Shown here one piece after another: positions 5,735-40,731 of a stretch of DNA of 57,909 nucleotides (positions are counted from its first letter, which is position 1; each line of letters begins with the position of its first letter). Location of the stretch: IMG/VR virus record IMGVR_UViG_3300045988_069295, positions 1 through 57,909 of that record. One strand, written 5' to 3'. The DNA is from a virus. Made by a program: the position numbers and the translations under genes. The notes under the pieces are model-generated. The model saw only the letters and a program-made list of their open reading frames with translations, searched no databases and had not been told where the DNA came from.

Positions 5735-5944
5735 TTTTTTGCGCTCCTTTCTTGCGTGGGCTTGCTACTGCTAGTATATCATACTGCAAGCCCCATTAAC
5801 AGGACTTGCCGGGAATATTTTGCCCTTTTGGGCTGGGGCGGGGTTGCTTTACGGTGCAGCCCCGCTAAAGTATCCGGGCGGCTCATTTGCTGGCTTTAAA
5901 TAATGCGCTGAAAAACCAAAAGAAGAACAGGACGCAAGATAATA

Positions 5945-12217: not shown

Positions 12218-12284
12218 TTGATTTTGAGAAATAAAGTTTCTGAAATCGCATTATAAAACCGAATATTTGATTTTTGTGCAGTTG

Positions 12285-12327
12285 TAGGCACTCTTTACAT
12301 TTTCAGGTAGGGGGTGCCTATTTTTTT
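12285..12327 (+). terminator. intrinsic terminator-like hairpin plus T7 ending 1 nt before the terL ATG
   Basis: TAGGCAC (12285..12291) pairs with GTGCCTA (12314..12320), extendable with G-U pairs, followed by TTTTTTT at 12321..12327. Confidence 0.65.
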
Positions 12328-14997
12328 ATGCAACCAAAGCAGTGTATCGCCATCATTGACAGCATCAAAGCGTATGCAAAACAGAATCCGACCGAAGCAC
12401 AGGTCTATGAGGACTGGTTTCAGGCGGTGGTGAACCTGAGAGATGCCCTGTCACAGGACAAGCGATTCGACGCCTACAAGTACTCTGGTGAGCTGCGCTC
12501 TATCTGTGCAGCCATGATGGGCAAGATGAAAACAGGCGAGGACGTGGCGAAGGTCTATGACATTATCGGTCGGACGTACCTGTTTGAAGCAAAGGATGTG
12601 TTCGACAGCTATTGCATCTACCTTGAATGGAATCGTGCGCCGGAAAAGAAGTTCTATCAGCCGAGACGCAGGGTTCTGAAAGTGCTGGCGGACGACCTTG
12701 AGGACTTGTTTTATAAGCGGATTGACTTCTTGGGAGTTAGTCTACCTGCTCGCGTTGGCAAGGCTTTGAGTGATGATACGCCGATTTTAACGAGAAGTGG
12801 CTGGAAGAATCACGGCGATTTGCAGGTCGGCGATGAAGTTATCAGCCCGAAAGGTCAGTTTGTAAAAGTGCTGGCCGTTTCGCCTAAGTGCCAGCTTGAT
12901 GTGCGTTGCCATTTCTCTGACGGCACATACATTGACTGCCACGAAAACCACGAGTGGCCGGTCTTTAACCGCCATAAGAACGGATTTGATGTTGTCGAAA
13001 CTAAGCGGATGATGGAGGATTATGTTGCCGACACAAAGGACGGTATAAGATTCTGCTATCAGGTTCCGTTCAAAAATTTTGTCGAGGGAGAATATAAGAA
13101 ACTGCCTGTTGAGCCGTACACATTGGGCGCATGGCTTGGCGATGGTCGCAATCAGCACCCGGATATTTGTGAACCTCCTTGTGATCGAGTGATTGTCGAG
13201 CGCGTCATTAACGATGGATACCCGGTTAGTTGGCATACGGTTCACAAGGACACCGGTGTTGAGTACTACGGATTCTCTGGTTTGCGACAAGCACTTCAAA
13301 AAGGCGATATGTGCCATAGTCATCGCCGCTGCGTGAAGCATATCCCAGAAGAATACTTTACAGCCAGCATTGCACAGCGTATGGAATTGCTTGCTGGTCT
13401 GCTCGATACAGACGGTACGTTACGGGCAAAAGAGCATCGGTACGCTTTTTCTACCACAGAGCCGCAAATGAGAGATGATTTTGTCACGCTGGTTTCTACC
13501 TTTGGATGGAGATGTAGCGTGGTGGAATATCCACCTCGTGTATCGTCTAGTGGCATTAAAGGTAATCTGACAGTCTATTCCATCTCTTTTAATCCTACCT
13601 GCCCCATTCCTTGTGTTGTTCCTCGCAAGCAGTTAAAGGAGTTCTCTAAACCTCGCCGTGTGGCGTTCTGTGGATTTGAGCACATCGAGCCGAAGCAGGG
13701 CAATTGCATTCAGGTTGAGGGTGGCGTGTACTGTGCCGGGAATCGTCTGATTCCTACTCACAACAGCACCCTGTGTATCTTTTTCATCACATGGCTGATG
13801 GGCAACCGCCCGGACGTTGCATCGGTTATGAGCGGACACTCCGACAAGCTGACGAATGGATTCTATGGCGAAGTGCTGTCTATCATCACTGACCCTGTGA
13901 CCTACAACTGGGGCAAAATCTTCCCTGACGTTCAGCTTGTGGACAAGAGCGCAAAGGACGAAAGCGTTGACCTGAACCGAAAGAAGCGTTTCCCCACCCT
14001 GACTTGCCGCTCAATCGGCGGCACGTTGACTGGTGCTGTTGAAATCGGCGAGGGCGGCGTTCTGTACAGCGATGACTTGATCGAGGACTTGGAGGAAAGC
14101 CTGAACGTTGAGCGTCTGAACAACAAGTATGATGCCTACCTAAACCAGCTGAAAGACCGTAAAAAGCAGGGCGCATTGGAGCTGATGGTCGGTACACGCT
14201 GGAACGTGCTTGACCCTCTGGGACGCATCCAGAACCAGTATGCAGACAATCCAAAGTACAGATTTCGGGTGATTCCCGCTGTGGACGAGAACGGACACAG
14301 CAATTTCAATTATGACTACGGCGTGGGATTTGACGATGCCTACTATGCCGATATGAAAGCAAGCATTGACGATGCAACATGGTGGGCAAAGTACATGGGT
14401 AAGCCCTATGTGCGTGAAGGTCTACTGTTCCCTGCCGATGAACTGCGATATTACAACGGCGTTCTGCCTGATGGCGAGCCTGATCGCAAGCTCATGGTCA
14501 TGGATATTGCATGGGGCGGCGGTGACTTCACCGCCTGTCCTATCGCTTATGTGTACGGCGATGCCGTGTTCATCCCTGACCTTGTGTTCAATAACGGCGA
14601 CAAGACCGTGACCAGACCGGAAGTCGTGGGCAAAATCATCCAGCACAAAATCAATGTGGTGCGCGGAGAAGCCAACAACGGCGGTGATGAATATTGCGAT
14701 GTGGTAGACAGCCAACTCCGGCAGCAGGGATACCACTGTTCTGTCCGCAGCCAGCGTGCGCCCAGCGGTCAAAGCAAGCTATCCAGAATCATCCAGTATG
14801 CGCCGGACATCAAGCGGTTCTACTTCCTTGACGAGAAGCACCAGTCGAAAGAGTACAAGGCGTTCATGGAGCAGGTGACGATGTTCACGCAGCTTGGTAA
14901 AGTTCCGCACGATGATGCACCGGATAGTCTGGCACAACTTTCCGATGAATTGTACAACGGAATCAGTAAAATTGAGCCTGTCAAGAGGCCTTTTTGA
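12328..14997 (+). CDS. terL: terminase large subunit, interrupted by an intein
   Basis: P-loop LPARVGK | intein | STL, with a nuclease-type C-terminal half. It directly precedes the portal region. ATG 12328 is preferred over the TTG 12274 extension. Confidence 0.9.
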   Translation: MQPKQCIAIIDSIKAYAKQNPTEAQVYEDWFQAVVNLRDALSQDKRFDAYKYSGELRSICAAMMGKMKTGEDVAKVYDIIGRTYLFEAKDVFDSYCIYLEWNRAPEKKFYQPRRRVLKVLADDLEDLFYKRIDFLGVSLPARVGKALSDDTPILTRSGWKNHGDLQVGDEVISPKGQFVKVLAVSPKCQLDVRCHFSDGTYIDCHENHEWPVFNRHKNGFDVVETKRMMEDYVADTKDGIRFCYQVPFKNFVEGEYKKLPVEPYTLGAWLGDGRNQHPDICEPPCDRVIVERVINDGYPVSWHTVHKDTGVEYYGFSGLRQALQKGDMCHSHRRCVKHIPEEYFTASIAQRMELLAGLLDTDGTLRAKEHRYAFSTTEPQMRDDFVTLVSTFGWRCSVVEYPPRVSSSGIKGNLTVYSISFNPTCPIPCVVPRKQLKEFSKPRRVAFCGFEHIEPKQGNCIQVEGGVYCAGNRLIPTHNSTLCIFFITWLMGNRPDVASVMSGHSDKLTNGFYGEVLSIITDPVTYNWGKIFPDVQLVDKSAKDESVDLNRKKRFPTLTCRSIGGTLTGAVEIGEGGVLYSDDLIEDLEESLNVERLNNKYDAYLNQLKDRKKQGALELMVGTRWNVLDPLGRIQNQYADNPKYRFRVIPAVDENGHSNFNYDYGVGFDDAYYADMKASIDDATWWAKYMGKPYVREGLLFPADELRYYNGVLPDGEPDRKLMVMDIAWGGGDFTACPIAYVYGDAVFIPDLVFNNGDKTVTRPEVVGKIIQHKINVVRGEANNGGDEYCDVVDSQLRQQGYHCSVRSQRAPSGQSKLSRIIQYAPDIKRFYFLDEKHQSKEYKAFMEQVTMFTQLGKVPHDDAPDSLAQLSDELYNGISKIEPVKRPF
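12763..13764 (+). mobile_element. 334-aa intein with a LAGLIDADG homing-endonuclease domain, inserted after the Walker A lysine
   Basis: Block A ALSDDTPILT (Ala1); block B ...HENHEW; LGAWLGDGR and LLAGLLDTDG; block F GNCIQVE (Cys at the usual Asp position); block G LIPTHN followed by Ser(+1). Confidence 0.85.
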
Positions 14998-15411: not shown

Positions 15412-15489
15412 GTTGCATTAGCTCAGTATGGCTAGAGCATCCGGCTCATAACCGGACATACATTGGTTCAAATCCATTATGCAGCACCA
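15412..15489 (+). tRNA. tRNA with a CAU anticodon (Met, or Ile2 if lysidine-modified), CCA encoded
   Basis: Manual cloverleaf: acceptor GTTGCAT/ATGCAGC, D stem GCTC/GAGC, anticodon stem TCCGG/CCGGA with loop CTCATAA, and T loop TTCAAAT (one U-U mismatch in the T stem). Confidence 0.8.
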
Positions 15490-31379: not shown

Positions 31380-32066
31380 ATGATGGCAAAAACTATTTTG
31401 GATGTTTCCCGCTGGCAGGGCCGCATCGACTGGGGCAAGGTCAAGGCAAGCGGCCTTGTCTCCGGCGTGATGCTGAAGACGGTATCCACCAACAGCAAGT
31501 TTTCCAATCGCAAGGACGGGCTGTACATCGACCCGACGTTTGAGCACAACTATGCCGAGTGCAAGCGTGTCGGCTTGCCGGCTGGCGTGTACTATTACAC
31601 CTATGCCGTCTCGCACACCAGTGCCGACGCAGAGCTTGCCCTGCTCAAGACTGCACTGGCTGGAAAAACCTTCGAGCTGCCGATCTGCGTGGATGTGGAG
31701 GACAACAAGCTCCGCAAGCTTGGCAAGCAGGCGTTGACCGACCTGACCGCGTATGCGCTGGCGACCATCGAGCAGTGGGGCTTCTACGCTCTGCTGTACA
31801 CCGGTCTCAATTTCGGTGAGACCCGGCTGTATATGGGCGATGCTGCATTGCGCAAGTACGATGTATGGCTGGCAAGATATCCCAGAGACAAGAGCAAAAC
31901 CAAACCAGAAGACAAGCCCAAAACAGACTTTTCTTTTGGCATGTGGCAGTACACCAGCAGCGCCAGCGTACCGGGCATCACGGGCAACGCAGACCTTTCC
32001 CACGCTTACAAGGACTACGCCGCCATTATCGCGAAAAAGGGGCTGGACAGGCTCCGGGAGGCGTAA
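31380..32066 (+). CDS. GH25 muramidase endolysin
   Basis: LDVSRWQGRIDWGKVKASG...DPTFEHNY...GVYYYTYA...ICVDVED pattern. Confidence 0.8.
   Translation: MMAKTILDVSRWQGRIDWGKVKASGLVSGVMLKTVSTNSKFSNRKDGLYIDPTFEHNYAECKRVGLPAGVYYYTYAVSHTSADAELALLKTALAGKTFELPICVDVEDNKLRKLGKQALTDLTAYALATIEQWGFYALLYTGLNFGETRLYMGDAALRKYDVWLARYPRDKSKTKPEDKPKTDFSFGMWQYTSSASVPGITGNADLSHAYKDYAAIIAKKGLDRLREA
31404..31473 (+). repeat. 70-bp perfect direct repeat, copy 1 (lysin 5' end)
   Basis: Identical to 35200..35269; about 80 bp with 2 mismatches. Confidence 0.95.
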
Positions 32067-35057: not shown

Positions 35058-35186
35058 ATGATCCAGTTTTATGTAACTCAAATCAAGCTGCATCAGTTTG
35101 ACGGCGCTTTTACCATTGAGGATGTCCCTGCCCGCTGGCGGGCCCGCGTACAAGCTGCGCTGGACAAGGAGGCGCAGGATGGCTAA
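35058..35186 (+). CDS. XkdX-like mini-protein (42 aa)
   Basis: MIQFYVTQIKLHQFDGAFTIEDVPARWRARV...; AGGAGG RBS; canonical position before the lysis genes. Confidence 0.45.
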   Translation: MIQFYVTQIKLHQFDGAFTIEDVPARWRARVQAALDKEAQDG

Positions 35187-35279
35187 GCACATCATGGACG
35201 TTTCCCGCTGGCAGGGCCGCATCGACTGGGGCAAGGTCAAGGCAAGCGGCCTTGTCTCCGGCGTGATGCAGAAGACAAG
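35179..35279 (+). pseudogene. 5' fragment of a GH25 lysin gene (duplicate of the start of 31380..32066)
   Basis: MAKHIMDVSRWQGRIDWGKVKASGLVSGVMQK, after which the reading frame runs into unrelated sequence. Confidence 0.75.
35200..35269 (+). repeat. 70-bp perfect direct repeat, copy 2
   Basis: Identical to 31404..31473. Confidence 0.95.
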
Positions 35280-35316
35280 GCGGACGCTGAGGAAATTACA
35301 CTGTAAGGAGGATATC

Positions 35317-35595
35317 ATGGCAAGCACTACATACGACCATTTTGCCAACCCCGGCAAAATGTACGCCGCACGAGAGCAATTTCGTCACGTCACGAAAATG
35401 GTCTGTGGACGTTTTCGCGACCTCACGAAAACATACCATCTCGGCAACGCCAACGAAATGGTGACGTTTTGTCACCGGTTTGCCGTCATTGGCAATATGG
35501 TGCGCAACGCCGGACAGCTGCCGCAGCCCTTCTGGCTCGGTGCTGCCTGTGGCGGCGGCTCGCATAGTCTTTTCGCCAGCGTTGCAAGGACTTAA
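35317..35595 (+). CDS. possible 92-aa ORF in a recombination-junction region
   Basis: Strong AAGGAGG RBS 6 nt before the ATG, but the DNA is full of short repeats and hairpins (CGAAAA..TTTTCG, GTGAC..GTCAC). Confidence 0.3.
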   Translation: MASTTYDHFANPGKMYAAREQFRHVTKMVCGRFRDLTKTYHLGNANEMVTFCHRFAVIGNMVRNAGQLPQPFWLGAACGGGSHSLFASVART

Positions 35596-35773
35596 TGCAG
35601 AACAGATAAAAGCTGTGATAAAACGTGCGCCGCTTGGGAGGTATGACCGGAAAATCGCCCGGTTGCGGTACGTTGACCAGCTATGTCAAGTTGATATTGC
35701 AGCGCGTGTGCCGTATTGTCGGACATCAATCGGCAATAGGCTGAAAATTATTGATAAAATGCTGGATGTGTGA
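35582..35773 (+). CDS. sigma-70 region-4-like / DUF1492-like HTH fragment (start uncertain)
   Basis: ...RKIARLRYVDQLCQVDIAARVPYCRTSIGNRLKIIDKML; only TTG starts are available and there is no clear RBS. Confidence 0.4.
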   Translation: MQGLNAEQIKAVIKRAPLGRYDRKIARLRYVDQLCQVDIAARVPYCRTSIGNRLKIIDKMLDV

Positions 35774-35830
35774 TATACTATATATGCGAGACCGCACTGG
35801 TGTACACCCAGTGACGGTATAGTGTACAGG

Positions 35831-35870
35831 AAGCCAGCGGAAGAACGTTTACCCGCTGGCTTTTCTTTTT
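35831..35870 (+). terminator. strong rho-independent terminator closing the late/tail-lysis block
   Basis: AAGCCAGCGG / CCGCTGGCTT 10-bp stem followed by TTTCTTTTT. Confidence 0.85.
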
Positions 35871-35880
35871 GCACGAATTA

Positions 35881-35889
35881 TGGTATAAT
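35881..35889 (+). promoter_or_regulatory. extended -10 promoter element TGGTATAAT
   Basis: TG-N-TATAAT read directly; no good -35. Confidence 0.4.
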
Positions 35890-36027
35890 TATCTCAACAA
35901 ATCCTCCCGGCCTCTCGAAGAAGCGCATTATGGTGGATATTTGAAAGGCTACGGCCTTTGTAGAGAGCGGCATTGCCTGTGGACGGTTCCGCTCTTGATT
36001 TTAGACTTTGCCGTTTTGGCGGCATAA

Positions 36028-36098
36028 AATCCCCTGCTTTGCCGAAGCCCTGCGTTCCACGCGGGGTACTTTGTAGGCAAAGTGGGGGATTTTTTTTG
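36028..36098 (+). terminator. terminator/attenuator at the end of a roughly 200-nt structured leader or small RNA
   Basis: AATCCCC..CTTTGCC pairs with GGCAAAG..GGGGATT, with an inner hairpin, followed by T8. Confidence 0.6.
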
Positions 36099-36276
36099 CA
36101 AATAAACCGGCAAAACTTTCTATTTTGGCATCATTTTATATAAGTATATTTATATCTTTAAGTGCTCATGCGGATTTTTCCGTGTGTGCGCTTTTTCTTT
36201 TTGTCCTTCGTTTGACGTTCGTTGTCCTTCGCTTTTTGCCGGTGCGGTATACTGGGAGCAATAGGAGGGATGAACC

Positions 36277-36795
36277 ATGAGCTATTACCAAACACCCGGA
36301 GCACCCTATGTTCCGCAACAGCCTGTCAACCCTTACGGCGGTATGGGCACGGTAGGGCTTTCCACTCCCCTGCCAAACACGCAAGTACAGCAGATGCAGC
36401 AGCAGCGTCCGCAGCCGATGAATGGGCAACAGCCTGTTCAGCAGTCGGCACAGGATGGCGGCTGGCTGCTTGGCAGGCCTGTTTCCAGCAGGGAGGAATT
36501 TCTGGCAATACCGTCAGACCTGTACGGAAGACCGACTTACTGCCCAGACTTGCGCAGCGGCGTGATCTACTGCAAGCGGCTGAACCCGGACACCTGCGAA
36601 TCCTATGTGCAGGAGTTCTACAGCCCGGAAGCGTGGCGGCAGATACAGGCGCAACAGGCACAGCAGACCGCTGCACCGACACAGCAGTATGTGCCTATTG
36701 AAGAGTATAACGCCCTCGTCCACCGTCTGGATGAACTGGAAAAGTGGCAGAAGAGCTTTTCTAAGCCCGCTACCGCTACGAAGAAAGGAGAATAA
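36277..36795 (+). CDS. cargo operon protein 1: P/Q-rich N-terminus with a Cys-containing C-terminal domain
   Basis: AGGAGGG RBS; no family recognised. Confidence 0.6.
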   Translation: MSYYQTPGAPYVPQQPVNPYGGMGTVGLSTPLPNTQVQQMQQQRPQPMNGQQPVQQSAQDGGWLLGRPVSSREEFLAIPSDLYGRPTYCPDLRSGVIYCKRLNPDTCESYVQEFYSPEAWRQIQAQQAQQTAAPTQQYVPIEEYNALVHRLDELEKWQKSFSKPATATKKGE

Positions 36796-36797
36796 CA

Positions 36798-37049
36798 ATG
36801 TCCTCTCCGTTTGATCTGATTACTCACAGCCCTATCATGCAGCTTGCAAATCTGGCTCGCGCCGGACAAAACCCGATGGGGCTTATCCAGCAGTTAAGCG
36901 GGCAGAATGCTCCTATCATGCAGGGGCTGAACCTGATTCAGGGCAAGAACGAAGCGCAGCTCCGAACGATGGCGCAGAACCTCGCCAAAGAGCGCGGCAT
37001 CGACCTGAACCAGCTGGCAAGCGTCCTGAATTTGACGCTTCCGAGGTGA
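36798..37049 (+). CDS. cargo operon protein 2 (83 aa, helical)
   Basis: Abuts the upstream gene; no family recognised. Confidence 0.55.
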   Translation: MSSPFDLITHSPIMQLANLARAGQNPMGLIQQLSGQNAPIMQGLNLIQGKNEAQLRTMAQNLAKERGIDLNQLASVLNLTLPR

Positions 37050-37061
37050 GGAGGTTTTACA

Positions 37062-37223
37062 ATGAGCGATTTTGAAAACAGCCATCCCGAAAAAGATTTT
37101 GACATCAACAATCTGTGTGGCAATGACAAACTATGGGTTCCTTTGATGCTTGGCTTTATTTTCGGTGCTGCCAGCAAAAAGTGGGATGACCCGGAAGACG
37201 AAAAAAGCAATCCTCCAAGCTGA
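37062..37223 (+). CDS. cargo operon protein 3 (53 aa, single TM helix)
   Basis: GAGGAGG RBS; ...CGNDKLWVPLMLGFIFGAASKKW...; below the ORF-track cutoff. Confidence 0.5.
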   Translation: MSDFENSHPEKDFDINNLCGNDKLWVPLMLGFIFGAASKKWDDPEDEKSNPPS

Positions 37224-37363
37224 CTTAACAATCCTAAAATAGGCATCCCTCTAAGCGAAACGCTTCTCAGTTTTGCGGACTTGACAAAAACCGCATTTGT
37301 ATGGCTTCGCCCATCGCACACGGCGGTGGGATAGCATAACGCAAAACTGAAAGGAGTTTTGTT

Positions 37364-38236
37364 ATGGACGATTTTGCAACTGGCTATCTGGCTGGGCAGG
37401 ACGGCGGCAATAACAACGGCGGATTCTTCGGCAACGAAGGTCTGTGGGCTGTTATTATCCTCGCCATCATCTTCGGCTGGGGCACAAACGGCTACGGCCG
37501 GAACGGCGGTGACAACGGCATGAACAGCTACATCCCTTATCTGGTCGGCACTGGCGCAACCGGTCAGGGCGGTGCAGACACTCGTGCAGCTCTGTCTGAG
37601 GGCTTCTACCAGCAGGATACCTCCCGCTCTTTGGCGGGTATCCAGAGCGGTATCTGCTCTCTGGGCTATGACCAGCTGGCGCAGATCAATGGCCTCAACG
37701 CCAACATTGCAAACGGCTTTGCTGGCGTGAACAGCGCCATCTGTCAGCTTGGCTACCAGAACGCACAGCTCGTGAACGGTCTGGAACGCAGCGTGTCCAA
37801 CGGCGACAACGCCATCAACCTCGCTATCATGCAGGAAAGCAACGCACGGCAGGCTGGCCAGACCGCACTTGCGACGCAGTTGGCATCCTGCTGCTGCGAG
37901 AACAAGCAGCTGATCGGCGACCTGAAGTACACCATCGCAACGGAGGACTGCGCCACCCGGCAGGCCATCGCAGACAACGCCCGCGCCATCGTGGACAACT
38001 GCAACGCAAACTTCCGCAGCATGATGGACTACTTCACGCAGGATAAGATTGCCACTCTGACCGCTGAGAACCAGAGCTTGAAATTCGCCGCTTCTCAGGA
38101 TCGGCAGAATGCACTTCTGACCACTGCGATGAGCGCCCAGACCGATACCATCCTGAACCGCGTGAATCCTCGCCCGATTCCCGCTTATCAGGTGGCGAAC
38201 CCTAACGCTGGCGTGAACTGCTGCGGCTGCTACTAA
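37364..38236 (+). CDS. cargo operon protein 4: Gly/Asn-rich plus TM N-terminus, repeat-containing helical body and Cys-rich C-terminus
   Basis: NNNGGFFGNEGLWAVIILAIIFGWG; two ICxLGY..AQ.NGL repeats; SCCCE; ends NCCGCY; AAGGAG RBS. Confidence 0.65.
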   Translation: MDDFATGYLAGQDGGNNNGGFFGNEGLWAVIILAIIFGWGTNGYGRNGGDNGMNSYIPYLVGTGATGQGGADTRAALSEGFYQQDTSRSLAGIQSGICSLGYDQLAQINGLNANIANGFAGVNSAICQLGYQNAQLVNGLERSVSNGDNAINLAIMQESNARQAGQTALATQLASCCCENKQLIGDLKYTIATEDCATRQAIADNARAIVDNCNANFRSMMDYFTQDKIATLTAENQSLKFAASQDRQNALLTTAMSAQTDTILNRVNPRPIPAYQVANPNAGVNCCGCY

Positions 38237-38271
38237 CCAACACACTCCCCGATAACACCGGGTGAACCATC

Positions 38272-38306
38272 GGGGCAGGGGGATTCACCTCTGCCCCTGA
38301 TTTTTT
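38272..38306 (+). terminator. intra-operon terminator hairpin that competes with an upstream hairpin
   Basis: GGGGCAG / CTGCCCC plus TTTTTT. It shares G38272-38275 with the alternative hairpin CCCCGAT (38247..38253) / ATCGGGG (38269..38275). Confidence 0.5.
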
Positions 38307-38320
38307 AGGAGGAAAACATT

Positions 38321-38692
38321 ATGGCTTGCAAAACAAGCTGCCGCCTGTGCTCGCACCTCGTCATTTCGGACGCGGTGACATTTGCCAATGACACGCTGAC
38401 CATCAACCTCCCCGCTGGCGCATACCAGAACGGAGAGAAGTATTGCATCGTGGTTGCTCAGAGCATCCCGGACACGACCACCATCAACGCCCCTGTGGTC
38501 ATCACTATCGGCGCAGGCACTACCGCATATCCCTTGACCGACTGCAACTGTGCTCAGGCAACCGCCGAGAGCATCCACACCCGCACCCGCTACGCCACCC
38601 GCGTGGCAACGTCCGCTACCGGCACAGGCACGTTCAAGTATCTTGGCTGCTTCTGCCGCTCCCACGCTGGTGCGCCCGCGTCCATTTCCTAA
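38321..38692 (+). CDS. cargo operon protein 5: 123-aa beta-rich protein with Cys clusters at both ends
   Basis: MACKTSCRLCSHLVISDAV...DCNCAQ...LGCFCRS; AGGAGG RBS. Confidence 0.65.
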   Translation: MACKTSCRLCSHLVISDAVTFANDTLTINLPAGAYQNGEKYCIVVAQSIPDTTTINAPVVITIGAGTTAYPLTDCNCAQATAESIHTRTRYATRVATSATGTGTFKYLGCFCRSHAGAPASIS

Positions 38693-38705
38693 GGAGGTAT
38701 AGATT

Positions 38706-39344
38706 ATGGGCAAGACTAATTTTCGCCGCATGATGATGCTCCGTGACCACGACAAAAACCGTGAACCGGAACGTGACCGCCTTGAGGAAGAGCGTGACCG
38801 CAGGGAGCGTGAGCTGGAACGCCGTCTGCGTAAGCTGGAAGATGGCAACGACCGTTATCCCTACTATCCGCAGGAGGAGAACCGTTATATCGACCCCTAC
38901 CCTATCCCCCGCTACCCTGACATAGAGAATGGGCGCAGAATGCCGCAAATCGGCTTCTCGCAGAACGGAGACTGGGATAAACGGTCTAATCAGTATGAAC
39001 GTGGCGGAGCAGATAGCCGTTCCATCAAGATGCCACGCCAGCACCTCACCCATGATGAAGCGGAAGAATGGTGCGACAGCATGGTGAACGCTGACGGCAC
39101 AAAGGGCTGTCACTGGACGCTGGAACAGACGCAGGACGTTGCCAAACAGCGCAATATCACCTGTGACCCAAATGATTTCTGGGCTGTCATGAACATGATG
39201 TACTCGGATTATTGCCAGGTCGCAAAGCGTCAGTCTGTTGACACTCCGGGCTTCTACGCCGACATGGCAAAGGCGTTCCTTGAGGACGCAGATGCCACAG
39301 ATGGCAAGGCATATCTCTACTGGGATTGCATTGCTGATAAGTAA
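38706..39344 (+). CDS. cargo operon protein 6: Arg/Glu-rich N-terminus with a Cys-containing C-terminal domain
   Basis: ...EEWCDSMVNADGTKGCHW...MNMMYSDYCQVAK...YWDCIADK; AAGGAGG RBS. Confidence 0.65.
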   Translation: MGKTNFRRMMMLRDHDKNREPERDRLEEERDRRERELERRLRKLEDGNDRYPYYPQEENRYIDPYPIPRYPDIENGRRMPQIGFSQNGDWDKRSNQYERGGADSRSIKMPRQHLTHDEAEEWCDSMVNADGTKGCHWTLEQTQDVAKQRNITCDPNDFWAVMNMMYSDYCQVAKRQSVDTPGFYADMAKAFLEDADATDGKAYLYWDCIADK

Positions 39345-39348
39345 AGAA

Positions 39349-39394
39349 GAACCCCTGTGTAGTTTTTACCGACTACGCAGGGGTTCTTTTATTT
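39349..39394. terminator. bidirectional rho-independent terminator between convergent operons
   Basis: 15-bp stem GAACCCCTGTGTAGT / ACTACGCAGGGGTTC followed by TTTTATTT. Confidence 0.85.
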
Positions 39395-39946
39395 CCAAAG
39401 TACAGATTTGGCTTTTATGTCAAATAAGTCTTGTGGATGGAACACAAGGCTTTTATCAAGCTCAACTATGCCAACGATGGAGAATTTGCCGGGGACTTCT
39501 CGCTCGATTTTTGCCTTTGCTTCTTCTTTGTTGCTTGCAAACAAGACGAACGGAGTTTGGAAGTGTCTGCATTTTTCGTCATCATCGTACTGGATTTTGA
39601 CCCAATAAAAGTTTTCACCCACTACTTCTTTCGGTGTTAAGTGTTTTTTGACACTTGAGACATCGTAAGTGCAATACCCGATACACTGTGGGTTTCCGTA
39701 TTTCTCCATAAAATTGTCGTTCCCAATACGAGTTGCCAAAACCATGTGAACGTCTTTCCAACCAACACGGTCATCATTGACCGGTTTATCGTCCATAACA
39801 ATATCATCAGGGGCTATCACTTTCTTGCCAACCGCCAAATTCCAATTATTTGCAATATAATGTGTCATCTGATACCAGTTGTCAAATGTTTTTACTTCTT
39901 TCATGGCATCTTCCAAAGAGCCACGATGAGGTCTATAAACAATCAT
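39389..39946 (-). CDS. hypothetical protein (last gene of the par operon, AT-rich)
   Basis: 185-aa ORF; no family recognised. Confidence 0.6.
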   Translation of the reverse strand: MIVYRPHRGSLEDAMKEVKTFDNWYQMTHYIANNWNLAVGKKVIAPDDIVMDDKPVNDDRVGWKDVHMVLATRIGNDNFMEKYGNPQCIGYCTYDVSSVKKHLTPKEVVGENFYWVKIQYDDDEKCRHFQTPFVLFASNKEEAKAKIEREVPGKFSIVGIVELDKSLVFHPQDLFDIKAKSVLWK

Positions 39947-39949
39947 ACG

Positions 39950-40522
39950 TCAATCCTCCAAGAAATCCTCCAACTCAATCTTCCCGTCTGCCGCTGCAAC
40001 GGCTAGGGCGTAAACGAACTGTCCAATCGTCATTCCGTGCCGCCTTGCTTCACGGTTGATATACTTGCGCTCCTCCTCGCTCATAAGGATGGTAATGCGC
40101 TTTGAACGCTTGCCATCGCCACTTGCAACGCCCTGATGCGATTCCGGCATCGGGATTTTTTTCTTTGTCAAGCCAGCTTCGGCTAGTGCACCGTGAACAT
40201 CGCCTTGTTCGATAAGACGTTGAACTTCTTTCGCCTGCTTCAACTTTTTCGGCTTACTTTCGCTTACTACGGCATTGTTTGACTGTGTTTCGCTGTCTTT
40301 GGCTTGCTTCGGCTTAATACTGCTTAACTGCGCTTCATTAGGCTGTGCACGGCTGTATGTGGCTTCACTGTGCTTAATCTGTACTTGCTCGGCTTCGTTC
40401 GGCTTTGCTTGGCTTACTTCTTCTTCCTTTGGCTCACTTCGGCTTAATGTCTGTTCCGAAAAAATAGGCTGGAAATCAAACCCGCCAAGCAGACCCGTTG
40501 ATTTTTTGCTGGTTGATTTCAT
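39950..40522 (-). CDS. ribbon-helix-helix protein with a long disordered Lys/Glu/Ser/Gln-rich N-terminus (candidate centromere-binding ParG/ParR analogue)
   Basis: C-terminus RITILMSEEERKYINREARRHGMTIGQFVYALAV is an RHH pattern. Start ATG 40522 overlaps the upstream stop (ATGA). Confidence 0.6.
   Translation of the reverse strand: MKSTSKKSTGLLGGFDFQPIFSEQTLSRSEPKEEEVSQAKPNEAEQVQIKHSEATYSRAQPNEAQLSSIKPKQAKDSETQSNNAVVSESKPKKLKQAKEVQRLIEQGDVHGALAEAGLTKKKIPMPESHQGVASGDGKRSKRITILMSEEERKYINREARRHGMTIGQFVYALAVAAADGKIELEDFLED
40251..40450. repeat. Twenty consecutive 10-bp units with consensus GGCTTnnnnn, no indels
   Basis: 8 units start with GGCTT and 16 of 20 have GCT at unit positions 2-4. The array lies inside the region coding for the disordered tail of the RHH protein. 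Confidence 0.85.
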
Positions 40523-40731
40523 TCCTCTACAGCCTCCATTCGTGCGCCACAATTTGGGCAAAAATTGACTGTCCACATGGAGTTTTTTCTAAATACGGCC
40601 ATGCAGTTTGAACAACCAATGCCAGCTACATTCACCTGCGTCCCGCCATTATCTAAGTCGGTATAACTATAATTTGCTTGTTCCCAATGTGCAATTGGGC
40701 GTACAACATGTTCGGTTTTCTTTTTAGCCAT
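40519..40731 (-). CDS. 70-aa Zn-ribbon protein between parA and the RHH gene
   Basis: CSNC...CPNC; GGAGGGGG RBS; start overlaps the end of parA. Confidence 0.6.
   Translation of the reverse strand: MAKKKTEHVVRPIAHWEQANYSYTDLDNGGTQVNVAGIGCSNCMAVFRKNSMWTVNFCPNCGARMEAVEE

Follow-up and report, generated by a model that had tools for sequence, protein, structure and literature searches.

What kind of element is a block of six small genes, set apart by terminators and coding for proteins that match no functional family, in the genome of a phage-plasmid? The question is raised by positions 35,881 to 39,394 of the virus record IMGVR_UViG_3300045988_069295 (IMG/VR), a siphovirus-like phage-plasmid of which the whole stretch analysed, 57,909 nt long, is here called the window. 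An earlier note, made from the DNA letters, had described the block as a six-gene operon fitting no phage or plasmid module, and had proposed that it encodes an exported assembly of the cell envelope or spore surface. Our computational analysis shows that the block is a mobile, moron-type accessory cassette of the tailed phages of gut Clostridia, with a conserved content: g0, a small gene for a helix-turn-helix (HTH) protein, followed by g1-g2-g4-g5 and then usually by g6, which encodes a DUF7841 protein, or by an alternative pair of small genes. The cassette is a regulated, multi-gene variant of the phage moron, and its protein content is without a characterised relative; the evidence does not yet show a new mechanism, and the cassette stands as a good candidate for an undescribed phage function.

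All six plus-strand open reading frames (ORFs) listed in the earlier note are present (g1 to g6, Table 1), and the features that it had picked out in their products were seen again: Cys in five of the six, g2 being the product without Cys; the clusters SCCCE and, C-terminally, NCCGCY in g4, and MACKTSCRLC, DCNC and GCFCRS in g5; a Gly/Asn-rich stretch followed by a hydrophobic helix in g4 and, in a weaker version, in g3; low-complexity N-termini that are P/Q-rich in g1 and R/E-rich in g6; and, in g4, two copies of about 28 aa each of the repeat ICxLGY..AQ.NGL. That the block is a self-contained plus-strand unit with terminators on either side was likewise borne out: the upstream hairpin is followed by a U tract, the downstream terminator is stable on both strands as had been claimed, and in all the cassette is insulated by three terminator hairpins upstream and one downstream. 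The description as a six-gene operon held for g1, g2, g4, g5 and g6, which are conserved, but not for g3, which is optional, and it had overlooked the upstream HTH gene g0.

The block was found as a unit in many phages and prophages of the gut, which number in the thousands, and the phage of the window is itself very common. Its close relatives, taken as the best 80 of at least 583 IMG/VR stretches with g4 relatives, are 96-99% identical, and the ratio of non-synonymous to synonymous substitution rates (dN/dS), computed among 97%-identical relatives, is 0.052 for g1, 0.045 for g2, 0.062 for g4, 0.075 for g5 and 0.050 for g6, which marks these five as real genes. To g3 corresponds a dN/dS of 0.23; it occurs in 25 of the 80 near-identical phages, has no homologue in the approximately 90 diverse loci, and is an optional insert outside the conserved core. 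Its match to the N-terminus of g4 covers only 12 residues, in the hydrophobic segment, and a duplication is not claimed. An iterative search with profiles of the six window proteins, covering every ORF in 92 diverse loci, revealed a constant order and strand, with g1-g2-g4-g5-g6 in 42 loci, g1-g2-g4-g5 in 15 and g1-g4-g5 in 18. When one genome per GTDB species was scanned with the g5 alignment, 115 stretches with g5 relatives were recovered from these species-representative genomes, mostly of Oscillospiraceae, Ruminococcaceae, Acutalibacteraceae and Christensenellales, with some Lachnospiraceae; cultured carriers include Anaerotruncus colihominis DSM 17241, Flintibacter muris, Acutalibacter, Muriventricola and Agathobaculum desmolans. 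The cassette is also present in the isolated Clostridium perfringens phages CPD1, CPQ4 and XP41-N3, with an HNH endonuclease gene between g2 and g4; the insert in CPD1 (L173 5600-6223) is of the HNH homing-endonuclease-like type. For these C. perfringens phages only genome announcements were found in the literature. Plasmids, by comparison, essentially lack the cassette, the one match being a weak one in a Vescimonas megaplasmid, and the cassette belongs to phages rather than to plasmids.

Its genomic position is usually that expected of lysogenic-conversion cargo, the role proposed in the earlier note. The commonest upstream neighbour is an endolysin gene (amidase or C39-like), and downstream, on the opposite strand, lies the gene for an integrase (26 loci; of the tyrosine type in 18 flanking ORFs, of the serine type in 8) or for an HTH repressor. 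In integrated prophages a host tRNA or transfer-messenger RNA (tmRNA) gene follows the cassette at about 100-300 bp in loci L094, L101, L128, L139 and L148, and at about 500 bp from g5 in L099. In the complete genome of A. colihominis, whose prophage occupies about 1.670-1.687 Mb of NZ_CP102255.1, the order is tail fibre, endolysin, cassette, tRNA and host ruvC. Given these integrase, tRNA and tmRNA neighbours, the cassette is typically the last prophage unit before the attachment site attR; in the window, a ParA/Rep module stands in the place of the integrase.

What the proteins are was addressed by scanning Pfam, PHROGs, NCBIfam and PADLOC with the six products and those of neighbouring genes. 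No functional family was matched: the only hits were g1 to phrog_21718 (E 1e-9), g4 to phrog_16490 (E 8e-41) and g6, through residues 109-202, to PF25223 DUF7841 (E 6.7e-26; 91.2 bits versus a cut-off of 25.2). The view that the block fits no phage module was hence correct in that no functional family could be assigned, but g1, g4 and g6 are members of phage-derived families, all three without a described function. Pfam, PHROGs, NCBIfam, PADLOC, PDB and, for the g5 model, Foldseek assigned none of the products to a family of virion, lysis, replication, partition or defence proteins, and PDB searches by sequence (g6 alone) and by profile (g1, g4, g5 and g6) gave nothing. For g1 there was no Pfam or PDB match and no name in the source records, and for g2 no family match in Pfam, PHROGs or NCBIfam. 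In a collection of 5.8 billion proteins, g4 relatives form more than 7,480 clusters at 90% identity, those of g5 about 1,490 and those of g1 at least 415; none of the relatives of these three is named, bar a few 'hypothetical protein' entries, and Pfam domains among them occur only in two long, probably chimeric proteins. A survey for domain fusions, covering 371 g5 clusters at 50% identity together with the g4 matches, yielded a few long proteins in which a ROK kinase, CHAP, Big_2 or collagen tail-fibre part is joined to a partial g4 or g5, and these were discounted as probable chimeric assemblies or recombinants. Syntenic homologues number 78 for g1 and 61 for g2. No paper came up in full-text searches on DUF7841 and DUF3800-VIII, and to the extent of our searches no description links DUF7841 and PHROGs 16490 and 21718 into one cassette.

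The protein with the most telling features is g4. Conserved among its homologues are a W...GWG pattern around the hydrophobic anchor, Cys98, a CCC triplet, the motifs LxAENQxLKFAASQ and PxPAYxVPNP, and the Cys/Gly tail; all homologues have a hydrophobic segment, with a mean hydropathy of 2.07. The AlphaFold2 (AF2) model, of low confidence, has a hydrophobic helix at residues 26-36, the putative membrane anchor, and long helices at 84-145 and 152-267. Full-length homologues with all hallmark motifs occur in many crAss-like phages (hhalign probability 99.8%, E 7e-29), among them cr116_1, where the gene (L175 4377-5273) lies 3' of holin and carboxypeptidase genes; in the plaque-isolated Bacteroides uniformis phage C3_41T2LP, amid recombination genes (L177 4989-5906); and in Methanomassiliicoccales viruses, vir215 (L178 4878-5759) being one of them. 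Neighbours of g4 in the crAss-like and Bacteroides phages were considered as remote g5 or g1 homologues and rejected (hhalign probability below 2%). Depositors have labelled some of the crAss, Bacteroides and archaeal-virus homologues 'spike protein/glycoprotein' or 'outer capsid protein/viral fiber', and small genes for HExxH metallopeptidase-like proteins are often found near g4 homologues in the viruses of Bacteroidota and archaea. Between g4 and g5 of the window there is an internal GC-rich hairpin with a T-run, overlooked in the earlier note; 34 of 80 diverse loci have such a hairpin at this place, its stem sequence differing between them, and it could be a partial terminator or an mRNA-stabilising element.

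These data bear directly on the assembly proposed in the earlier note, an exported, disulfide-cross-linked layer of the envelope or spore surface carried as lysogenic-conversion cargo. Such a layer would be comparable to the Cys-rich coat and exosporium proteins under GerE control. The moron position at the prophage end, the richness of g4, g5, g1 and g6 in Cys and the placement of g0 in the GerE/LuxR-sigma-region-4 class of HTH proteins agree with it, as does the fact that many hosts are Clostridia including C. perfringens and Anaerotruncus, which are spore-forming. Nevertheless, among the homologues of g1, g2, g5 and g6 (48-89 for each) none has a signal peptide or a hydrophobic stretch, hydropathy never reaching 2.0, and with no hydrophobic segment outside g4 and g3 an exported assembly is not supported. 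A spore coat or exosporium origin was also considered and rejected, since neither Pfam nor NCBIfam gave a match to such proteins and g4 is also carried by viruses of hosts that do not sporulate (crAss-like, Bacteroides and Methanomassiliicoccales viruses); the cassette is moreover found in virulent-looking phages (L088 and the plaque-isolated ones). Altogether, we regard this reading as very improbable.

The most conserved member of the cassette is g5, which retains 60-75% identity in loci where g4 is at 45-50% and g1 at 20-35%. Its Cys7, Cys10, Cys42 and Cys77 are invariant and Cys3 is nearly so, forming an N-terminal CxxxCxxC motif. A Foldseek search of PDB with the g5 model returned nothing at E < 1; in BFVD, the model matched uncharacterised phage proteins and, weakly, tail-fibre tips (E 0.01-0.2, TM 0.4). 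The protein that follows, g6, is facultative and was found in 48 of about 90 loci; where it is lacking, proteins of 147 aa (helical/low-complexity) and 105 aa are usually encoded 3' of g5, and in this subtype a 128-aa papain-like (Cys...His) protein is often encoded 5' of g1.

Could the cassette then encode an accessory part of the virion, for example a decoration or a fibre of the head or neck, with g4 as shaft, g5 as beta-sandwich knob, Cys-rich joints, and g1, g2 and g6 as chaperones or adaptors, conferring a benefit related to the gut and not to a particular host? In Dulem virus 35, Bajarodcaudo virus 2 and a Hadza-gut phage the cassette is co-directional within the head-morphogenesis cluster, in the first two between a MuF-like gene and the scaffold/capsid genes; in L083 it is 3' of the major capsid gene, and in L088, a phage of 68 kb in which nucleotide-metabolism genes and no integrase were seen, it is at the end of the structural genes. 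In the window it comes directly after the tail-fibre-like genes (Gp10_C). The long helical rod of the g4 model, the weak resemblance of the g5 model to tail-fibre proteins, the hairpin after g4, which is typical of abundant structural genes, the presence of g4 across three host phyla or domains, suggestive of a host-independent role, and the 'spike' or 'viral fiber' labels of the crAss homologues point the same way. On the other hand, most cassettes come after the lysis genes and last before attR or the integrase, the g4 homologue of C3_41T2LP lies among recombination genes, a putative regulator of its own and flanking terminators come with the cassette, g4 carries a hydrophobic, Gly-flanked anchor, and no match to a virion fibre, decoration or other structural family was found in PHROGs, Pfam or PDB. 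Moreover, the same g5, at 60-75% identity, is paired with unrelated capsid and tail types, which is unexpected for a part that docks on those structures. We hence judge a virion appendage to be unlikely.

How might the cassette be controlled? In 30 loci a protein of about 70 aa is encoded directly 5' of g1 on the same strand, and the profile of these proteins matches the window ORF that contains g0 (E 6.4e-9). Members of the family match Pfam Sigma70_r4_2 (16 of 32), GerE (13 of 32) and Sigma70_r4 (12 of 32), with a best E of 3e-9, and a representative member matches phrog_1190, RNA polymerase sigma factor. The gene accompanies the cassette at other genomic positions too, for example in L083, L086, L174 and CPD1, and we consider g0 a putative regulator of the cassette; located at the end of the late operon, it would fit very late lytic expression and lysogenic expression equally well. 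Three further observations concern the DNA around g0. A strong promoter-like site in 35751-35875 (plus strand) that overlaps the end of g0, TTGATA-17-TATACT with a TG, has 10 of 12 matches, and the terminator hairpin at 35829-35864 lies only about 50 nt 3' of it, making a very short transcript possible. ORF 35179-35595 (plus strand) begins with no more than the first 28 or so residues of a GH25 lysozyme domain (Pfam E 2e-4) and resembles the scar that recombination in a second lysin gene would leave just 5' of g0; within it are an ATG at 35318 with a strong ribosome-binding site (RBS), opening a 92-aa reading frame, and three CACGAAAA/AACGAAAT DNA repeats.

A third possibility is an accessory lysis or release module in which g4, as a bitopic membrane protein, and its soluble partners would tune the timing of lysis or complete the disruption of the envelope. 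The frequent location directly 3' of an endolysin gene, the place of the g4 homologue of cr116_1 behind holin and carboxypeptidase genes, the lysin remnant just upstream in the window and the very late expression that g0 at the end of the late operon would give are all in keeping with such a module, as are the single N-terminal hydrophobic segment, coiled coil and conserved Cys of g4. Holins, antiholins and spanins were nonetheless rejected as identities, since no family match was obtained and the relatives carry separate, recognisable holins. In addition, some related phages do without the cassette and some cassettes are remote from the lysis genes, and the monoderm, diderm and wall-less hosts need different release machinery. 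A lysis module thus appears quite improbable.

The earlier note had assigned to the operon an extended -10 promoter, TGGTATAAT, and a hairpin-rich leader of about 200 nt ending in a stem and T8. The promoter element is indeed there, but it belongs to a separate and variable small-RNA locus, and the supposed leader is that RNA, its terminal stem and T8 being the Rfam DUF3800-VIII RNA. The hairpin matches all of the covariance model RF03075 (positions 1-64 of 64; 85.1 bits versus a gathering score of 40.2), and the RNA at 35889-36100 folds with -85 kcal/mol (z -3.9). DUF3800-VIII is also present in the relatives L024, L031 and L040. The unit is modular: its middle 90 nt or so are common to Faecalibacterium phage Roos, where they occupy a convergent intergenic region, and are deleted in L031; phage Roos shares this neighbouring non-coding DNA and is without the cassette. 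The DUF3800-associated motifs, including DUF3800-VIII, were described without a hypothesis for their function (Weinberg et al., 2017; PMC5737381). In the window the motif resembles the described one in matching the full model and being followed by a U-run, and differs in being one interchangeable occupant of a variable intergenic region with no adjoining DUF3800 gene, none being found by a Pfam scan of the ORFs that flank the cassette. A second terminator-like hairpin, conserved in close relatives, follows, so that a transcript from TGGTATAAT meets two terminators before g1.

The borders of the cassette, upstream as well as downstream, are hypervariable. Among near-identical phages the intergenic length between g0 and g1 is anything from 277 to 2332 bp, and downstream, among 97%-identical phages (L003-L082), it is 48 to 656 bp, with cargo that differs from phage to phage: tRNA-Val, tRNA-Asp, tRNA-Gly, DUF3800-VIII or skipping-rope RNA. 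In two prophages RAGATH-31 (L117 6099-6151) and a twister-sister ribozyme (L148 6008-6087) lie directly 5' of g1, and 3' of the cassette there are RAGATH-21, directly adjoining it (L002 9789-9865, Dulem virus 35), and skipping-rope (L003 9035-9107). In L017 an RT-18 RNA (1111-1194) was seen about 5 kb 5' of the cassette. It may be that the surroundings of this cassette were among those in which the RAGATH and twister-sister families were first discovered.

By contrast with the rest of this intergenic region, the last 75 nt or so 5' of g1 are conserved among 45 close relatives. They hold a -10-like box, TATACT or TACACT, with no -35 hexamer at 17 +/- 1 nt from it, an RBS, and two direct repeats, GTCCTTCG, that on the plus strand are unique to this region (Table 1). 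Analogous repeats with 11- or 22-nt phasing were observed 5' of g1 in about 11 of 73 other loci. The conserved box and repeats suggest that g1 has a promoter of its own.

For the architecture of the cassette the support is good. As to function, these features together lead us to propose, tentatively, a regulated, membrane-anchored complex with an action at the cytoplasmic membrane that resembles superinfection exclusion or traffic control. Production of the complex would begin with g0, which may activate the -35-less promoter directly 5' of g1 by binding the helically phased direct repeats (GTCCTTCG twice), and the hairpin and U-run after g4 would leave more g1-g2-g4 message than g5-g6 message. 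The main subunit would be g4, with a short, Gly/Trp-flanked anchor, a coiled-coil rod of about 190 residues and a Cys-rich tip, on which g1, g2, g5 and g6, lacking export signals, could assemble at the membrane on its cytoplasmic face. Probably g4 and g5 meet in one metal or redox-sensitive junction, to which g4 contributes its Cys/Gly tail and g5 its invariant Cys cluster. In the least certain step, the site of action would be the cytoplasmic membrane, the cell being either infected or lysogenic, and the complex would most plausibly control the traffic of phage DNA or of lysis factors across that membrane, for example in superinfection exclusion. It is probably neither a part of the virion nor an exported surface or spore layer. 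We are led to the proposal by the usual moron position, the dedicated regulator, the combination of one cassette with unrelated virion types, and the host range of the g4 family: its monoderm, diderm and archaeal hosts have the cytoplasmic membrane as their common envelope layer, which favours a role at the membrane over a structural one.

Several points weigh against this proposed membrane complex. Each step beyond gene order, conservation and sequence features is deduced, with no homology to any function. The models are poor for g4 (AF2 predicted local distance difference test, pLDDT, 51) and only moderate for g5 (pLDDT 63); the g4 anchor, of only 12-16 residues, is short for a membrane span, and its flanking net charges (-1.2 on the N-terminal side, -0.3 on the C-terminal side) leave the positive-inside rule indecisive on topology. 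The window g0 alone falls below the Pfam threshold and matches no Pfam model, and it has no clear start codon or RBS, so its start is uncertain. The direct repeats are not significant in aggregate, with a mean longest repeat of 6.5 nt versus 5.4 in shuffles and 6.4 in a coding control, and only individual striking cases are for this reason reported here. PADLOC-DB 2.0 gave nothing significant for g0-g6 and two downstream genes, the best match being g2 to PDC-S02 (E 0.025, 11.8 bits), and superinfection-exclusion functions usually reside in single proteins. The location inside head gene clusters in three phages and the weak tail-fibre-tip matches of g5, set out above, add to these points. A bolder conception, which we hold to be rather doubtful, is that of an undescribed cellular machine without counterpart among the known lysis, exclusion, defence or virion modules, comprising a GerE/sigma-region-4-like activator, a membrane-tethered coiled-coil stalk of g4, a Cys-metal or redox centre, an extremely conserved beta-sandwich head of g5 and g1, g2 and g6 as low-complexity partners. 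The stalk family would be common to viruses of gut Bacillota, Bacteroidota and methanogenic archaea, and the function would be one adapted to the anaerobic gut, for example redox- or oxygen-sensing control of infection or release.

How does the cassette compare with known systems? Like phage morons, or lysogenic-conversion cassettes, such as lambda bor and lom or HK97 gp15, it is optional, inserted variously between conserved modules, bracketed by terminators, probably equipped with its own promoter and mostly last before the attachment site. It differs in having five to six genes and a dedicated regulator instead of one gene, and in occurring also in apparently virulent phages and in head-gene clusters. 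With the membrane superinfection-exclusion proteins (T4 Imm and Sp, lactococcal Sie2009 and HK97 gp15) it shares a small, predicted membrane-anchored phage protein without enzymatic domain in an accessory position; there is no similarity in sequence or fold, no homologue of the described Sie, Imm or Sp proteins having been found in Pfam, PHROGs, NCBIfam, PADLOC or PDB, and those proteins lack the Cys clusters, the long coiled coil and the several soluble, conserved partners of the cassette. T4 holin T with antiholins RI and RIII, and the i-spanin Rz, offer a likeness in the short N-terminus, the single hydrophobic helix, the large helical domain with Cys, the small partners and the proximity to lysis genes. 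Cys is functionally important in proteins of these types, and spanins have no role in monoderm or wall-less cells. No homology connects them with the cassette, whose relatives carry separate holins and whose hosts include monoderm and wall-less cells. Lastly, in toxin and bacteriocin loci under small, dedicated sigma-like regulators (TcdR, UviA and BotR) and in GerE-controlled coat genes, as in the cassette, a small gene of the sigma-region-4/LuxR type stands directly 5' of a block for non-enzymatic proteins without signal peptides; g0, however, is only a region-4-like HTH of about 70 aa and not a full sigma factor, and the cassette proteins are unlike toxins, bacteriocins or coat proteins.

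Elsewhere in the window (Table 1), the ORF of the large terminase is unusually long. PHROGs of the P-loop primase and DnaC-like kinds are matched as well by its N-terminal half, and a fusion or an insertion may be present. Encoded 3' of the cassette by ORF 39950-40576 (minus strand), a 208-aa product carries at its C-terminus a ribbon-helix-helix of the NikA/MobA-like type (Pfam NikA-like, E 1.7e-5), which, adjoining the ParA/Rep module, fits the plasmid lifestyle of the phage. A RAGATH-5 RNA lies at 5827-5877 (minus strand; 61.8 bits versus a gathering score of 50) and a tRNA gene at 15412-15486 (plus strand).

Table 1. Features of the cassette and of its surroundings in the window (positions are those of the window; free energies and z-scores are for the predicted RNA folds).
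Feature	Position	Strand	Remarks
Large terminase	12274-14997	+	907 aa
Portal	15897	+	
Major capsid protein	18520	+	
Tape measure	22550	+	followed by tail proteins
GH25 endolysin	31380-32066	+	complete
Tail-fibre-like genes	33017; 34134	+	the second with Gp10_C
g0	within ORF 35480-35773; HTH part ~35573-35770	+	small sigma-70-region-4 / LuxR-GerE-type HTH protein; profile match
Terminator closing the late/tail operon after g0	35829-35875 (hairpin 35829-35864)	+	12-bp stem, -19.8 kcal/mol, z -3.9, then CUUUUCUUUUU
Separate small-RNA unit	35881-36097	+	TGGTATAAT, structured RNA of ~200 nt, DUF3800-VIII hairpin, T8
Extended -10 TGGTATAAT	35881-35889	+	
RF03075 DUF3800-VIII hairpin	36028-36091	+	T8 run at 36090-36097
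Second terminator-like hairpin and U-run	36160-36200 (hairpin 36160-36193)	+	-19.8 kcal/mol, z -6.9
Probable true g1 control region	36203-36270	+	conserved in close relatives; putative function
Two GTCCTTCG direct repeats	36203-36210, 36224-36231	+	21-nt offset
-10-like TATACT	36248-36253	+	
RBS AGGAGGG	36263-36269	+	
g1	36277-36795	+	P/Q/Y-rich N-terminus, conserved domain of ~55 aa (RPVxSxEEA...G.IY.K...G), C-terminal helix
g2	36798-37049	+	~80-aa helical protein, Met/Gln-rich NPMxLIQQ repeats, no Cys
g3	37062-37223	+	optional 53-aa protein, one hydrophobic segment
g4	37364-38236	+	Gly/Asn-rich N-terminus, hydrophobic anchor, long helices of ~190 aa, PxPAYxVPNP, Cys/Gly tail
Internal GC-rich hairpin and UGAUUUUUU between g4 and g5	38269-38307 (hairpin 38269-38301)	+	-24.5 kcal/mol, z -3.7
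g5	38321-38692	+	beta-rich protein of ~125-135 aa, most conserved member
g6	38706-39344	+	R/E/G/Y-rich low-complexity N-terminal half, C-terminal DUF7841
Bidirectional terminator closing the cassette and the convergent gene 39389-39946 (-)	39345-39397 (hairpin 39345-39390)	both	+ strand -32.7 kcal/mol, z -9.1; - strand -25.7 kcal/mol, z -6.3
ParA	40724	-	3' of the cassette
Replication initiator	41840	-	3' of the cassette
Repressor-like HTH	43539	-	3' of the cassette

Five conserved proteins without a characterised relative make this one of the few multi-gene blocks of human-gut phages that are so large and unannotated. The linkage of PHROG 21718, PHROG 16490, the g5 family and DUF7841 in one regulated, mobile cassette gives these orphan families a shared context, and the cassette borders do the same for the orphan RNAs DUF3800-VIII, RAGATH-21, RAGATH-31, skipping-rope and twister-sister, besides tRNAs. 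The cassette is available in culturable systems, namely the prophage of A. colihominis DSM 17241 and the C. perfringens phages CPD1 and CPQ4, and C3_41T2LP offers the g4 homologue only. Finally, the spread of g4 across bacterial phyla and the archaeal viruses of the gut points to a function linked to the membrane or to the gut, and not to one type of host envelope.

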